Source of the DNA: a virus
Lineage: Duplodnaviria > Heunggongvirae > Uroviricota > Caudoviricetes
Length of the DNA: 4,984 nt
Strand: one strand, 5' to 3'
Virus record (IMG/VR): IMGVR_UViG_2711768073_000012
The translations under genes and the position numbers were made by a program. Shown here one piece after another: positions 1 to 4,984 of this stretch. Under the pieces are notes generated by a model that was not told the origin of the DNA, searched no databases, and was given only the letters and a program-made list of their open reading frames with translations. The number at the start of each line of letters is the position of its first letter. Within the stretch, counting starts at the first letter, position 1.

Positions 1-1
1 C

Positions 2-1498
2 TTTGCTCATCCGGAAGAAATCGACACCATTGTGTCCCACACCCGCGATATTGCCATTCAGGAAGACCGCCACGAGCTGGGCAATGATATTACTCCGCGC
101 TTTAAGGTGGAGTATGTCGACGGCTCAAAAGGCACGCCAACCAGCTACATCGCCACCTACATCGGAAAGAACCTGGACAGCCGCGCCGTGGATGGCATCG
201 ACCCGAAAACGGGCAAGCCACGCGTTGACCACGAAACCGGAAAATCAATGGCCGAGAGCGTGGAACGCGCCATCGGCTGGGCACGCCTTCACCGGGTCCG
301 CCAGTTCCAGTTCTTTGGCATCCCCTCCCGTCAGGTATGGCGTGAACTCCGCCGCCTTGCCAGCCAGATGGCACGCAACCCGGAAGGCCCACAACGGCTG
401 AAGGATGATGCAATGGATGCGGTACTCGCTGCCGCTGATGCCGGGTGTTTTGCCACCTACATTGAGAAACAGGGCGGCGTACTTGTTCCACGCAAAGACT
501 ACCTGATTCGCACCGCCTACGACCTCGCAGATGAGCTGAACGATTACGGCGAACAGAGCGTACAGATTTACGGGATCTGGTCACCACTCATCGGGGAATC
601 CTCCCGTGTGTGCACGCACTCGGATAACTGGAAGCTGGTAAGACGTAAACCGGAAGCGGAAGACAGCACCCGCGAAAATGGTTTTGACCTTCAGGGCGGC
701 CCTGCCGCCCCTTGGACTCGTGGCAATAACTGTCCCCGTGTACAGGAAACGGACAACAACGGGACAGAACAGCCGGAAGAAAGGCCAGCACCGTGGCCGC
801 AGCTTCCTGACGGCGTTGACGTGAATGAATGGATGCGCTCACTGAAACGGCACGAACGCCGGGCGCTGATGCGTTCGCTGCGTGACAAACAGGCAAAAAA
901 CAGCAGTGATGAAATGCAGAACTGGACACAGAGCCGCAAACAGCCACGGCCTTTGCCTGATAACCACGAGTTACTCGCTAAAGAATGGCGGGAGTCTGCT
1001 GAATCTCTCGGCCTGCATATCGGTGAACAGCAGATGCAGCACCTGTTACGGGGCGGCAGTCTGTACGTTGACGGCAGCATCATTGCACCGCAGGGATTTG
1101 AAATTGTACGCAAACCAGATACCCGCCCGGACAGCCGAATCACGCAACTCTGGCAGCGCCTGAGCCGTAATCACGGCGTAAGCAGCACGGAGATCCGCCA
1201 TAACCCGGTCGCCAGCTATCTGGAACAGCTGGGGGCATCAGACCCCGAAGCCGCCGCACACCTGGCATCCACACTTCAGCAGGACCAGAACACCATGAAA
1301 ACCCCCGTTACCGTGCTTTCTGACATGCTGCGCGCCATCCGTGACGCAGTGCACGCACAGAGAATCAGTGAAACCACTGAACGCGCCCACCGCAAAGCAG
1401 ACCTGCTGCGGGGTAGCCTGACCAGTGGAAACAAAAAACAGACAGAAACGGGACTCACAAATCCCGTAAATGAGCAAAAAACGTGCCGCGATATATGA
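2..1498 (+). CDS. A: Replication initiation endonuclease, phage P2 gene A family (rolling-circle initiator), C-terminal part; 5' end lies outside the window
   Basis: Frame is open from nt 2 (FAHPEEIDTIV...) with no stop until TGA at 1496-1498. Contains the paired-tyrosine motif SYIATYIGKN (Y-x-x-x-Y followed by K), typical of the catalytic motif of rolling-circle initiators of the phiX174/P2 A type. Position is consistent with P2 gene order (A, then variable cargo, then cos, then Q). The other overlapping ORFs here are off-frame artefacts of GC-rich sequence. Confidence 0.8.
   Translation, partial: FAHPEEIDTIVSHTRDIAIQEDRHELGNDITPRFKVEYVDGSKGTPTSYIATYIGKNLDSRAVDGIDPKTGKPRVDHETGKSMAESVERAIGWARLHRVRQFQFFGIPSRQVWRELRRLASQMARNPEGPQRLKDDAMDAVLAAADAGCFATYIEKQGGVLVPRKDYLIRTAYDLADELNDYGEQSVQIYGIWSPLIGESSRVCTHSDNWKLVRRKPEAEDSTRENGFDLQGGPAAPWTRGNNCPRVQETDNNGTEQPEERPAPWPQLPDGVDVNEWMRSLKRHERRALMRSLRDKQAKNSSDEMQNWTQSRKQPRPLPDNHELLAKEWRESAESLGLHIGEQQMQHLLRGGSLYVDGSIIAPQGFEIVRKPDTRPDSRITQLWQRLSRNHGVSSTEIRHNPVASYLEQLGASDPEAAAHLASTLQQDQNTMKTPVTVLSDMLRAIRDAVHAQRISETTERAHRKADLLRGSLTSGNKKQTETGLTNPVNEQKTCRDI
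1448..1467. promoter_or_regulatory. Inverted repeat ACGGGA-(8 nt)-TCCCGT inside the 3' end of gene A; candidate protein-binding or ori-associated hairpin
   Basis: Seen directly: acgggactcacaaatcccgt, 6-bp arms. A related element recurs about 73 bp downstream (1521-1540). Function is inferred. Confidence 0.3.
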
Positions 1499-1520
1499 AG
1501 CGCGCACAAAACAGGCAAAA

Positions 1521-1540
1521 GCGGGATTTAAAAATCCTGT
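1521..1540. promoter_or_regulatory. Inverted repeat GGATT-(4-5 nt)-AATCC in the A/parM-like intergenic region; candidate operator or centromere-like (parC-type) site overlapping a possible promoter
   Basis: Seen directly: gcgggatttaaaaatcctgt. It resembles the 1448-1467 element (aaa-cggga...aatcc-gtaa in both). It is followed by an AT-rich stretch (ttaattaat) and a Shine-Dalgarno aggaa 7 nt before the ATG at 1575. The promoter call (-35-like tttaaa, -10-like taatta) is weak. Confidence 0.3.
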
Positions 1541-1574
1541 AACCGATTAATTAATCAACACAAGGAAAAGCGAC

Positions 1575-2537
1575 ATGAAAATTTGTATCGACGACGGCTC
1601 CACCAACATCAAGCTGGCATGGACTGAGAACGGCGAACGCCGCAACGCCATCAGCCCGAACAGCTTCAAGTCGGAATGGTCTGCGCCGTTCGGTGGCACG
1701 CAGCCCGCGAACTACATGCTTGATGGCGTGCGCTATGGTTTTGATCCGGTCAGCGATCGCTTTGTCCAGACGACCGACACGCAATACCAGTACAGCGATG
1801 TGAATATAATTGCCATTCATCACGCGCTGGTCAAATCAGGCATCACACCACAGGAAGTGGATGTGGTTGTCACCCTGCCACTGAGCGAGTATTTCGATAC
1901 AAACGCACAGCCGGACATGGCCAACATCAACCGCAAAAAAGCGAACGTCATGCGCCCGGTGGAGTACCAGAACGGCGAAGCATTCACTATCCGTAACGTA
2001 CGGGTTATGCCTGAATCCATTCCGGCTGGCTTTAAGGCACTGGCTGACATGAGTCCGTTTGAATCCCTGCTGATTGTGGATTTGGGCGGAACCACTCTGG
2101 ATGTGGCAAAGGTTCAGGGGCAACTGGCAGGTATCAGCCAGGTGTTTTGCGATCCACACGTGGGCGTTTCTCTGATGGCCGATGCCGTACTGTCGGTGAT
2201 GGCCACTAACGGTATGCGCACCAGTCACCACATCGCCAATACCATTATCGAACATCGCCATGATGAAGCCTGGTTGCGCCAGCACATCCACAATGACGCG
2301 CATTACGCCAGCCTGATGGCGGTTATTCGTGAAAAGGAAGAAACACTGAAACAACGAGTGATCCGCGCGCTGGCGGGGTTTTCGGGTTACGGGCGGGTGA
2401 TGGTTGTCGGTGGCGGGGCGGAGATTGTGGCACCCGCTATCCGCGAAGCCTGCGGAGTTAATGCGACTTTCATCGCAAAAATGATGAAGCCTGGCTGCGC
2501 CAGCACATCCACAATGACGCGCATTACGCCAGCCTGA
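1575..2537 (+). CDS. ParM/StbA-like actin-fold partition ATPase; the native C-terminus is replaced by 19 frameshifted codons because of a tandem duplication
   Basis: N-terminus MKICIDDGSTNIKLAW closely resembles the plasmid R1 ParM/StbA N-terminus (IDDGSTNIKL phosphate-1 motif). Also present: phosphate-2 motif LIVDLGGTTLDV and adenosine motif VMVVGGGAEIV. SD aggaa sits 7 nt upstream of the ATG. The last 19 residues (KMMKPGCASTSTMTRITPA) are copy 2 of the duplication read out of frame. Confidence 0.85.
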   Translation: MKICIDDGSTNIKLAWTENGERRNAISPNSFKSEWSAPFGGTQPANYMLDGVRYGFDPVSDRFVQTTDTQYQYSDVNIIAIHHALVKSGITPQEVDVVVTLPLSEYFDTNAQPDMANINRKKANVMRPVEYQNGEAFTIRNVRVMPESIPAGFKALADMSPFESLLIVDLGGTTLDVAKVQGQLAGISQVFCDPHVGVSLMADAVLSVMATNGMRTSHHIANTIIEHRHDEAWLRQHIHNDAHYASLMAVIREKEETLKQRVIRALAGFSGYGRVMVVGGGAEIVAPAIREACGVNATFIAKMMKPGCASTSTMTRITPA

Positions 2538-2697
2538 TGGCGGTTATTCGTGAAAAGGAAGAAACACTGAAACAACGCGTGATCCGCGCGCTGGCGGGTT
2601 TTTCGGGTTACGGGCGGGTGATGGTTGTCGGTGGAGGGGCGGAGATTGTGGCACCCGCTATCCGCGAAGCCTGCGGAGTTAATGCGACTTTCATCGC
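2260..2697. repeat. Imperfect direct tandem duplication: two 217-bp copies (2260-2476 and 2481-2697) separated by AAAA; period 221 bp, not a multiple of 3
   Basis: Aligned by eye. The copies differ at 4 positions (2274 t/2495 c; 2357 a/2578 c; 2378 g/2599 t; 2414 c/2635 a). All four are third-codon-position synonymous changes in the parM reading frame. CATCGC occurs at the left boundary (2253-2258) and at the end of each copy (2471-2476 and 2692-2697). Confidence 0.9.
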
Positions 2698-2755
2698 GGA
2701 CGGGGTGCCACAGTTTGCTCTGGTTAATGGGCTGTACGCAATGGACAAGGAGTAA
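2537..2755 (+). CDS. Displaced native C-terminal reading frame of the parM-like gene (72-aa ORF); likely a remnant of the duplication rather than an independent gene
   Basis: Translation MAVIREKEETLKQRVIRALAGFSGYGRVMVVGGGAEIVAPAIREACGVNATFIA is identical to residues about 248-301 of the upstream ORF. It then continues DGVPQFALVNGLYAMDKE, which resembles the ParM C-terminal end (..DLVNGMY..). Removing one repeat unit restores a single ~319-aa ParM-like ORF running 1575 to 2755. Confidence 0.45.
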   Translation: MAVIREKEETLKQRVIRALAGFSGYGRVMVVGGGAEIVAPAIREACGVNATFIADGVPQFALVNGLYAMDKE

Positions 2756-2759
2756 ACCA

Positions 2760-3071
2760 ATGACGACTCCAACCAGACGGATAAGTTTCTATCTGAAGCC
2801 CACCGCCGTCAAGAACGAAGGAGAAGCATGCGCCTGGCTGGACAGCCTTACACCAGAAGCCCGCAAAAGCGGCCAACGCGTGGCTTTTCTGGCCGGGCTG
2901 GCACTTCTGAAAATGAATCCGGCAGAGGCTTATCGACTGGCTGCATGGGCTGGTGATGAAGCGTTATCAGTGACACAAACCAGGACAGAACGCCCCGCAT
3001 CACAGCCAGTATCAACCGCACAGATAACCAGTCAGATGGCCGGAAATATCCGGGCGTTATTTCCTGAATAA
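2760..3071 (+). CDS. ParR/StbB-like partition adaptor (ribbon-helix-helix-type small DNA-binding protein), 103 aa
   Basis: ATG at 2760 is preceded by SD aaggag (2747-2752, 7-nt spacer) and starts 5 nt after the parM-frame stop. Translation MTTPTRRISFYLKP...LDSLTPEARKSGQRVAFLAGLALLK...IRALFPE resembles R1 StbB/ParR (RRTIAFKLNP...LDSIPQGERS...AALTAGLALY...LRSLFP). The 148-aa ORF in the track (from 2625) begins inside repeat copy 2 in a third frame, so 2760 is the preferred start. Confidence 0.7.
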   Translation: MTTPTRRISFYLKPTAVKNEGEACAWLDSLTPEARKSGQRVAFLAGLALLKMNPAEAYRLAAWAGDEALSVTQTRTERPASQPVSTAQITSQMAGNIRALFPE

Positions 3072-3079
3072 CACAACAT

Positions 3080-3725: not shown

Positions 3726-3737
3726 TCCCCCTCAAAC

Positions 3738-3763
3738 CAGGGCGATAATCGCGCATCGCCCTG
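3738..3763. promoter_or_regulatory. Second copy of the CAGGGCGA...TCGCCCTG inverted repeat (10-nt spacer), directly downstream of the Ea22-like gene
   Basis: Seen directly: cagggcgataatcgcgcatcgccctg. Together with 3080-3097 it brackets the Ea22-like ORF. Confidence 0.4.
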
Positions 3764-3764
3764 C

Positions 3765-3792
3765 TGCACAATAGTGCACAAGTTTGCACAAT
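3765..3792. repeat. Three phased direct repeats TGCACAA at 3765, 3775 and 3786 (10-11 bp spacing, about one helical turn); candidate protein-binding array
   Basis: Seen directly: tgcacaatagtgcacaagtttgcacaat, followed by a T7 tract. Confidence 0.4.
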
Positions 3793-3834
3793 TTTTTTGA
3801 ACGACTTTTTACCCTTCCGGCCCGCATGGCGGCT

Positions 3835-3853
3835 GGATCCGTCAAGGATCCGT
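3835..3853. repeat. Direct repeat GGATCCGT x2 with 11-bp period
   Basis: Seen directly: ggatccgtcaaggatccgt. Confidence 0.4.
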
Positions 3854-3861
3854 GCGTGCAC

Positions 3862-3886
3862 AAAAAAACGCGCTTTTTCTGCGCGC
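3862..3886 (-). terminator. Candidate rho-independent terminator for leftward (- strand) transcription
   Basis: The - strand reads CGCGC-agaaaaa-GCGCG followed by TTTTTTT: a 5-6 bp all-GC stem, 7-nt loop and U7 tract. It lies about 330 nt downstream of the portal stop, so its target transcript is uncertain. Confidence 0.4.
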
Positions 3887-3910
3887 AGGTGACGGGGGAA
3901 CAGCCCGCGT

Positions 3911-3937
3911 TTCAGGGGGTAAATAGCATCCCCTGAA
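3911..3937. promoter_or_regulatory. Inverted repeat TTCAGGGG-(11 nt)-CCCCTGAA
   Basis: Seen directly. One of several palindromes in the presumed cos-proximal region; another is tcacgc-tga-gcgtga at 3974-3988. Confidence 0.3.
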
Positions 3938-4163
3938 CGATGTCGCAGCGACACAACAGAATGGCTGTATTTCTCACGCTGAGCGTGAAAAAGACGTGAG
4001 GGCTTTTGATTTGATGGGTGGCAGATAAGGCCGTCAAAATCGCACTGAGGCGGCGAGAACATGCAGTCAACGCGGTGGGATTGCGTAAGAGTCTGACCGC
4101 CGATGATGACAATAAGCAGAAAAGCGTCGTGAAATTATCTGATTGATACAGGAGCTGGAGAGT

Positions 4164-4188
4164 CGGGGCATAAATTTTTTATGCCCCG
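4164..4188 (-). terminator. Near-perfect palindrome CGGGGCAT-aaatttttt-ATGCCCCG 27 nt downstream of the portal stop; candidate transcription terminator or binding site
   Basis: Seen directly: 8-bp GC-rich arms with an A/T-only centre. There is no external U-tract on either strand, so the terminator assignment is tentative. Confidence 0.35.
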
Positions 4189-4214
4189 GCGAAGCAGCAG
4201 ACAAGCGAAGCGCG

Positions 4215-4984
4215 TCAGGATGTGGGCTGGGTATCTAGCAGTGCGTAAGGGTTAAAGCGGATCACCTCTTCGCCAAGCCAGTCATTGATGTGCTTCATGG
4301 CCTCCATGACGGGCATCAGCTCGTTAATTGCGTAAACCCGCGCGGCCTTCTCCACATCACCAAACGCACTTTTTTCGCCCGGCATCGCCCCCATCAGTTG
4401 CGGCGGAACGCGGTGCGCAGCCAGCACATCATCACGGGATGCCGCCTTAACATTCATGAACTCATCCTTTGCGGTGATCTGCTGGAACGGCAAAATTTGC
4501 ACCCCCTCTTTGCCCCCGTTGGGCGCATGAATGAGCACATTTTTAAACGCACCACCACCACGTGCACCCTGTAACGTTTCTTTCAGGGAGTCCATGCTTT
4601 CGCGGTTTACCTGCGCTGCTCCGATGTAGATGATGCACCCGGCGTGGGATCCATTGTCGTAGTACAGTTTTCTGAACATGTCCGCCGAATGAGACAGGCT
4701 GGCCGAGAGTAATGCGCCGAGATATTCCGGCATGCCGTAGATTTCCTGGTTAATATCCGGATTCATCAGGTGGCACACTTTGCCAGGGCGAAACTGAAAC
4801 GCGTCCTTGCCGTCCTGTACATACCACCATGATTCAAGATCGCTTCCGCGTCGCATGTATTTCGCCAGTGCGTGCCGTAATTTAAGCGGTTCGCCGAGCA
4901 TATTGCTTCGAAGCTCAAGGAATGCGTTACCGAACACAAACCAGTCCAGCGCCAGCGCCGAGAAATCCTGCCGGGAAAGCAGCG
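4215..4984 (-). CDS. Q: Phage portal protein (P2 gene Q type), C-terminal ~255 codons; N-terminus lies beyond the window end
   Basis: The - strand frame is open from the window edge (..LLSRQDFSALALDWFVFGNAFLE..) to TGA at 4215-4217. It contains the HRVPPQLMGAMPG motif, which resembles the conserved (F/H)RVPPxLxG signature of phage portal proteins. Leftward orientation next to the cos-type region and opposite gene A matches P2 synteny. Confidence 0.75.
   Translation of the reverse strand, partial: LLSRQDFSALALDWFVFGNAFLELRSNMLGEPLKLRHALAKYMRRGSDLESWWYVQDGKDAFQFRPGKVCHLMNPDINQEIYGMPEYLGALLSASLSHSADMFRKLYYDNGSHAGCIIYIGAAQVNRESMDSLKETLQGARGGGAFKNVLIHAPNGGKEGVQILPFQQITAKDEFMNVKAASRDDVLAAHRVPPQLMGAMPGEKSAFGDVEKAARVYAINELMPVMEAMKHINDWLGEEVIRFNPYALLDTQPTS

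Follow-up and report, generated by a model that had tools for sequence, protein, structure and literature searches.

Two natural alleles of parM placed head to tail in a frame-breaking tandem repeat of a P2-like prophage sequence

How does a gene come to carry two long, head-to-tail copies of one of its own segments, which shift its reading frame and differ from each other only by silent changes? This question is raised by a parM gene in the 4,984-nucleotide stretch of viral DNA analysed here as a whole, hereafter the window. Tandem Repeats Finder detected a single tandem array in this gene, at 2260-2697, with a period of 221, 2.0 copies, 98% matches, no indels and a score of 848. A base-by-base comparison at an offset of 221 resolved the array into two copies of 217 bp separated by the four nucleotides AAAA (Table 1), with exactly four mismatches between copy 1 and copy 2: T/C at 2274, A/C at 2357, G/T at 2378 and C/A at 2414. 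A repeat of this length at 98% identity is far beyond chance. Together with the list of open reading frames, these analyses confirmed the preliminary description of the locus, made from the letters of the window, which had reported a 217-bp tandem duplication with a 221-bp period that frameshifts parM. The same description had called the differences silent third-position changes. Re-alignment in the native frame placed them in the codons L234 (TTG/CTG), R261 (CGA/CGC), G268 (GGG/GGT) and G280 (GGC/GGA), all four synonymous; their silence was thereby upheld, and the codon position had to be corrected for one of them, since three are third-position changes and the one at 2274 is a first-position change.

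Table 1. Features of the window (positions counted from its first nucleotide)
Feature	Position	Strand	Basis
gpA, P2-type replication endonuclease gene, 3' part; the ORF leaves the window at its left end	1..1498	+	PF05840 Phage_GPA; 'replication endonuclease' in the closest genome
Two 38-nt direct repeats (1432-1469 and 1505-1542), each with an inverted repeat inside; candidate parC-like centromere/operator	1432..1542	+	repeat search
Disrupted parM ORF, 320 aa, of which residues 1-301 are native and the last 19 out of frame; ends at TGA	1575..2537	+	ORF list; Pfam
CATCGC, one base (C2259) 5' of copy 1	2253..2258	+	the same hexamer terminates both copies (2471-2476, 2692-2697)
Copy 1, rare B-type parM haplotype (T2274, A2357, G2378, C2414)	2260..2476	+	0 mismatches to L025/L106, L104 and L107; 4 to the A allele
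AAAA filler at the novel junction	2477..2480	+	offset comparison; makes an A5 run and the period of 221 (3n+2)
Copy 2, common A-type haplotype (C, C, T, A), continuous with A-type downstream DNA	2481..2697	+	window minus copy 1 equals L001 over 965-3073
72-aa ORF, ParM residues 248-319 in the native frame	2537..2755	+	Pfam ParM C-terminal domain, profile positions 90-159
StbB/ParR-like adaptor gene, 103 aa, intact	2760..3071	+	PF10784 Plasmid_stab_B, E=3e-23; annotated 'plasmid partitioning/stability family protein'
Ead/Ea22-like gene, 196 aa	3135..3725	+	PF13935; identical protein recorded in 1,193 blocks of the collection
Phage portal gene, 3' part; 17 clustered differences to an otherwise identical A-type prophage	4215..4984	-	annotation and mismatch map; PF04860 matches the homologous gene

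Because the 221-bp period is 3n+2, the parM frame shifts after residue 301. The 19 out-of-frame residues that end the 320-aa ORF read KMMKPGCASTSTMTRITPA, and the stop codon of this shifted ORF overlaps the ATG of the 72-aa ORF within the sequence TGATG (2535-2539). The 72-aa ORF terminates in DGVPQFALVNGLYAMDKE and is the only one to encode the native ParM C-terminus (…ATFIADGVPQFALVNGLYAMDKE). No single frame of the window thus runs through parM including its C-terminal segment: the final 18 residues are coded only in the separate 72-aa ORF, and their displacement after residue 301, as first described, was borne out by the ORFs.

The intact allele was compared with known partition proteins. 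It matches PF06406 (StbA_N) with 274 bits and PF21523 (ParM C-terminal domain) with 230 bits, both above the gathering score, and aligns end to end with R1 ParM (PDB 1MWK; E=1.2e-92, residues 2-316 against 2-318). IDDGSTNIK, DLGGTTLD and V(I/V)GGGAE are conserved in this alignment; we take IDDGSTNIK, DLGGTTLD and GGGAE to be the nucleotide-binding motifs of the actin fold (phosphate 1, phosphate 2 and adenosine, respectively). As judged from these matches, the disrupted gene is a genuine ParM gene, encoding a type II partition actin-like ATPase (StbA). In the 320-aa ORF of the window, StbA_N spans residues 1-157 and PF21523 covers profile positions 1-145 of 159 only; its product retains all the nucleotide-binding motifs and misses the last 18 residues. 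Loss of ParM function by frame shift is the most likely outcome; the locus would encode ParM minus its last 18 residues and possibly also a separate 72-aa C-terminal fragment. Because the repeats are 98% identical, the lesion would be reversible in principle, RecA-mediated collapse of the repeats giving back the intact gene.

The cassette resembles the R1 ParM/ParR (StbA/StbB) system in the end-to-end ParM alignment, in both Pfam ParM domains and in the adjoining Plasmid_stab_B gene, which starts 4 bp downstream of the parM reading frame. It differs from R1 in three respects. First, the R1 system is plasmid-borne, whereas in the window an integrating prophage of the P2-like type carries the cassette, with replication gene A on one side and the portal gene on the other. 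Secondly, parM is broken after residue 301. Thirdly, of a parC centromere only a candidate was seen, the two 38-nt repeats. In R1 parMRC, parC is located upstream of parM, a position like that of these repeats, which from their location are a candidate parC-like centromere or operator. No Rfam RNA family matched anywhere in the window.

Regarding the host element, the parM-stbB region shares 97.8-99.3% DNA identity with phages P88 and Xuanwuvirus P884B11. The gene order gpA, parM, stbB, ead, portal is the same in P88, in P884B11 and in the homologous prophage of O26/O103/O111 E. coli, and the homologous loci show portal, terminase, gpO and P2 capsid genes. By gene order and identity, the element is a P88/Xuanwuvirus-type P2-like (Peduoviridae) prophage of E. 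coli. Of 5,426 complete E. coli genomes, 1,303 contained the parM region, which was chromosomal with few exceptions; in all, it was found at 1,443 places across 1,304 E. coli records, with a maximum of three per genome. At least two parM copies occur in about 10% of the parM-positive genomes, and two or three such prophages often reside together. The cassette is thus an annotated and widespread partition cassette of the parMR type, already known as such; a literature search on ParM in P2-like prophages found nothing relevant.

The origin of the two copies was sought among natural alleles. The window without copy 1 shows 0 differences to the prophage of E. coli E2865 (L001) over 965-3073, while four differences to L001 show up when copy 2 is removed instead. 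Over its whole length, the collapsed window has 99.5% DNA identity to E2865. This common version of parM, here termed A-type, was found exactly in 17 of 97 gapless alleles (L001, L013 and 15 more loci) and is the common type in prophages of O26/O103/O111-type E. coli. Copy 1, with its haplotype T, A, G, C, agrees at all 217 bp with IMG/VR contig 2534681761_000008 (L025) and corresponds to a rare version, termed B-type. An exact search for the A2357-G2378 pair in IMG/VR and metagenomes returned four contigs only (L104, L105, which is L011, L106, which is L025, and L107); three of the four match copy 1 perfectly, and L105 is one base off. The pair was not found among GTDB representatives, and the best match to copy 1 in complete E. 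coli genomes has 2 mismatches (1,411 places). The two copies are therefore two natural alleles of parM, copy 1 being B-type and copy 2 A-type.

Because a natural allele matches each copy, we infer an origin from two diverged alleles and not from slippage, in agreement with the argument originally raised against slippage from one template. A slippage or microhomology-mediated duplication of a single allele, one copy of which then acquired four point mutations, would be in keeping with the presence of CATCGC near both breakpoints, and tandem duplications of about 217 bp are common. Such a history would have had to hit, by site and by base, a natural allele carried by independent contigs, for which the chance is about 4!/651^4 (~1e-10). 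All four differences being synonymous has p ~0.0035 under random mutation, and four differences from the A allele fall in a 141-bp part of copy 1, compared with 0 in the flanking 2.1 kb. We rejected this explanation, whose probability is virtually nil. The locus does share with microhomology-flanked slippage duplications and deletions the hexamer CATCGC at or near both breakpoints, the same motif that mediates a 22-bp deletion in another locus (L085); unlike such events, its copies stem from two alleles and a filler replaces the base expected of a slippage join.

The silence of the differences has a simple counterpart in the natural population. Among 71 distinct alleles, 165 segregating changes are synonymous and 52 non-synonymous, against a random expectation of 24% synonymous changes. 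The all-synonymous differences between the copies are explained by purifying selection on the natural alleles, and the proposal that both copies had evolved under protein-coding constraint was sustained by these counts.

The preliminary description had further proposed unequal recombination between two diverged parM alleles. The two alleles were indeed matched; a single unequal crossover between pure A and pure B was ruled out by the DNA upstream of copy 1. At the six upstream sites that separate A from L025 (1806, 1889, 1898, 1922, 2096 and 2162) the window is A-type at 6/6, and at two of them all four B-type contigs carry the other base (G at 2096, A at 2162). B-type alleles also diverge from the window downstream, from 2801, where the window is again A-type. 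The resulting haplotype map runs as A to at least 2162, B from 2273 at the latest to at least 2414, AAAA, and A from 2495 at the latest onward, with a B tract of 141-314 bp that coincides with copy 1. Since the upstream sites are A-type, a second, homologous switch is required between 2163 and 2273. Neither the complete E. coli genomes nor the B-type contigs contained a natural allele combining an A-type upstream part with B-type 2274-2414, with which one unequal crossover would have sufficed.

Exchange of short tracts is frequent among these prophages: natural alleles include every pairing of the 2274 and 2414 variants, four in all, and of the 22 positions at which the window departs from the A-type prophage, 17 form a cluster in the portal gene, at 4473-4910. 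These portal-gene differences do not match the B-type contigs, which rules out a B-type source for the patch and points to another lineage.

The novel junction, spanned by the sequence CATCGCAAAAATGATG, reads CATCGC-AAAA-ATGATG, whereas a clean pairing of CATCGC microhomologies predicts CATCGC-C-ATGATG. Of the microhomology-mediated joining first suggested, the CATCGC + AAAA junction and the CATCGC near the left boundary were found again, the latter one base off; the join itself is not clean, AAAA standing where C is predicted, and microhomology alone was ruled out as an explanation of the junction. Neither the window nor ~700 kb of related loci yielded a template for the AAAA filler. Illegitimate joins in E. 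coli normally use microhomology and add no extra bases, an untemplated 4-nt filler being unusual. In an unrelated assembly (L085), the 22-bp deletion lies between CATCGCC repeats at 2231 and 2253, its endpoint being the start of the duplication in the window, and CATCGC is plausible as a break point.

Based on the haplotype map, we consider the repeat to be probably a private, frame-breaking lesion, produced by one illegitimate join together with homologous exchange with the parM of a second prophage. A B-type segment of ~217 bp would have been placed head-to-tail beside the resident A-type copy, with four untemplated A between them. The first joint would be a homologous A-to-B switch somewhere in 2163-2273. 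The second would be illegitimate, connecting B position 2476 to A position 2260 beside the CATCGC microhomology, with AAAA as filler. We infer the order of events from this map, to which three routes may lead. First, homology-anchored illegitimate recombination could have occurred with the DNA of a co-resident or superinfecting related phage. Secondly, two template switches could have taken place as two related phages co-replicated in one cell. Thirdly, short-patch gene conversion could have altered copy 1 after an ordinary duplication, with a tract that would stop at the junction because homology ends there. The three routes would give one map and look alike at the sequence level.

Homology-facilitated illegitimate recombination is on record for E. 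coli, with a very low measured frequency of about 3e-10 per recipient cell (PMC3240628). The window resembles this process in that the donor tract opens within shared homology (2163-2273) and closes at a join without homology, and its haplotype map fits the process, although duplication with gene conversion yields the same map. The process usually involves microhomology without filler, whereas the window has four inserted A.

Searches for the same structure elsewhere revealed single copies throughout. Each of the 1,304 E. coli and 14 phage records aligns as two pieces over 1,080 bp, not 1,301 bp, and therefore holds one copy of the 217-bp segment, in a parM of 319 codons, whereas the window has two. 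The junction strings were found in 0 of 107 fetched loci, the exact 32-nt junction string was absent from GTDB species representatives, IMG/VR and JGI metagenomes, and a query over the junction never gave a one-piece alignment in 5,426 complete E. coli genomes. The exact-protein look-up held no record of the 320-aa product. No other parM duplication was seen in the 97 gapless alleles or the remaining fetched loci. Three candidates were discarded on inspection: the longer matches of L059 and L076 are due to a 25-aa ParM-like fragment further downstream, and in L086, a draft assembly with N gaps, the repeated parM pieces are artefacts of scaffolding. The duplication is ordinary in kind, and private to the window among the collections searched.

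A structure seen once raises the possibility of a sequencing or assembly chimera, in which a strain harbors both an A-type and a B-type prophage, the B piece is misplaced by the assembler or by a chimeric molecule (e.g. a chimeric long read, or template switching during amplification), and the true locus is a single intact parM. Both component alleles are expected in such a two-prophage strain, and ~10% of parM-positive genomes have at least two copies. The start of the B-type contig L025, 13 bp upstream of parM, looks like a typical contig break induced by a repeat. The N-gapped draft scaffold L086, with its false repeats of parM pieces, also shows that assemblers mishandle this gene. The window itself, however, contains no Ns, and the novel string CATCGC-AAAA-ATGATG must come from reads, as mis-joins in an assembly graph make no new bases. 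The remaining window matches the A-type prophage cleanly, with no further anomaly, and the breakpoint motif is a deletion endpoint in another genome, as would fit a biological illegitimate event. We regard a chimera as the chief alternative and as less likely than a real lesion. Counting against a real lesion are a junction found in no second sequence and a 4-nt untemplated filler of a kind unusual in E. coli; counting for it are CATCGCC at 2253 as the endpoint of the independent L085 deletion and the common occurrence of recombination and co-residence.

A functional arrangement was also considered, in three forms. If ribosomes slipped by -1 on the A5 run (GCA AAA ATG read as AAA AAT), a 393-aa ParM with an internal 73-residue repeat would result, and such a slip at 2477-2480 would return copy 2 to the native frame (...ATFIAK followed by NDEAWLRQ...). 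Alternatively, the 320-aa and 72-aa products would be co-expressed via TGATG, where the stop of the shifted ORF overlaps the ATG, and complement each other. In the third form, duplication and collapse would switch partition on and off, the 98% identical 217-bp repeats being able to collapse by homologous recombination to an intact gene. The X XXY YYZ heptamer, however, is absent, only A AAA A being present (sequence C GCA AAA ATG), and the downstream RNA is not unusually structured: the predicted junction hairpin comes from a native CATC…GATG palindrome, and its fold does not reach significance (z = -0.88). None of more than 1,600 related loci shares the junction, hence there is no conservation. 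The TGATG overlap is an automatic outcome of the native CTG ATG in the shifted frame, and no evident Shine-Dalgarno sequence lies upstream of 2537. A programmed -1 ribosomal frameshift site was rejected for want of a slippery heptamer, of a stimulatory structure and of conservation, and a functional arrangement of any of these forms is very improbable. Just as doubtful is a last pair of ideas, in support of which nothing positive was found: that the B-type copy with its A4 tail is a fragment of the second prophage's parM which entered as short free nucleic acid (e.g. an mRNA decay fragment that had been oligoadenylated and reverse-transcribed, or a displaced rolling-circle strand), or that an unstable 217-bp repeat constitutes a reversible on/off switch of partition.

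The locus represents no new system or genetic element; it is a one-off recombination lesion (or an assembly chimera) in a known prophage cassette. As a recombination lesion, the preferred reading, it would provide a base-resolved example of DNA exchange between P2-like prophages that joins one homologous and one illegitimate joint. An annotation of the window should mark parM as disrupted or possibly misassembled, and not as two genes.

Finally, the lesion has company. In the collection, 142 blocks have a call for the 72-aa ORF, and in these parM is broken by other lesions; none of the contigs with this ORF carries the duplication. These other lesions comprise a W233 amber codon in four loci, several 1-bp indels and the 22-bp deletion of L085. 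As parM is often broken in prophages, a null allele is tolerated, and the window adds to the evidence that the parMR cassette, present in ~1/4 of complete E. coli genomes, is often inactivated after phage integration. That the lesions cluster near nt 640-742 of parM probably reflects ascertainment, since the 72-aa ORF served as the query.

Inactivation of parM is frequent in integrated prophages, as indicated by the 142 blocks of the collection in which a 72-aa C-terminal ORF is called. This ORF results from an amber mutation of codon 233 (W233, TGG to TAG, window 2271-2273). This mutation is common to four of the related loci fetched for comparison (L084, L087, L089, and L092), and the genes neighbouring parM differ among these four prophages. 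In the window, the frame-shifted parM ORF ends in a stop codon that overlaps the ATG of the 72-aa ORF in a TGATG sequence (2535-2539). This overlap arises automatically, because the native CTG ATG is read in the shifted frame.

In a further related locus, L085 (GCA_005399485.1), parM lacks 22 bp (nt 665-687, corresponding to window 2238-2260), and this deletion lies between CATCGCC direct repeats located at window 2231 and 2253. Its endpoint is the base at which the duplication of the window starts, and the deletion is thus an illegitimate event that occurred independently at this motif.

Repeated parM pieces were also found in the related locus L086 (GCA_002973245.1, JZQA01000170.1), where nt 1-390 and nt 732-801 of the gene each occur twice between positions 2438 and 5219 of an N-gapped scaffold. 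These repeats are a scaffolding artefact affecting the same gene, and they bear on the alternative explanation of the window's duplication as a sequencing or assembly chimera of two prophages, carrying the common and the rare parM allele, in one strain. In two other loci, L059 and L076, a 25-aa stretch (4306-4380) with 72% identity to ParM residues 87-111 lies ~350 bp downstream of an intact parM and may be the remnant of another parM-like gene.

Upstream, the parM start lies directly 3′ of a pair of direct repeats, one of which is contained in the 3′ end of gene A. Each repeat harbors an inverted repeat (ACGGGA-N7-TCCCGT and GCGGGAT-N6-ATCCTGT), and the pair is a candidate parC-like centromere or operator.

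Location of sequence features in the window
Feature	Window position	Strand	Remarks
38-nt direct repeats	1432-1469 and 1505-1542		79% identity, 73 nt apart
Stretch between Ead/Ea22-like and portal genes	3726-4214		~490 bp
Hairpin, example	3774-3789	plus	GC-rich, T-run
Hairpin, example	3868-3886	minus	GC-rich, T-run
Portal gene patch	4473-4910	minus

The portal gene patch gathers 17 of the 22 differences from an otherwise identical A-type prophage (the type carrying the common parM allele). No exact match to it was found among the fetched loci or complete E. coli genomes, the best showing 8 mismatches over 584 bp. The patch derives from an unsampled lineage through mosaic exchange.

Between the Ead/Ea22-like and portal genes, neither a Pfam-supported ORF nor an Rfam match was detected, and the stretch contains several GC-rich hairpins with T-runs. 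The cargo at this position differs in related prophages, where it includes, among others, Ogr/Delta, Rrf2-like, and AAA_15 genes.
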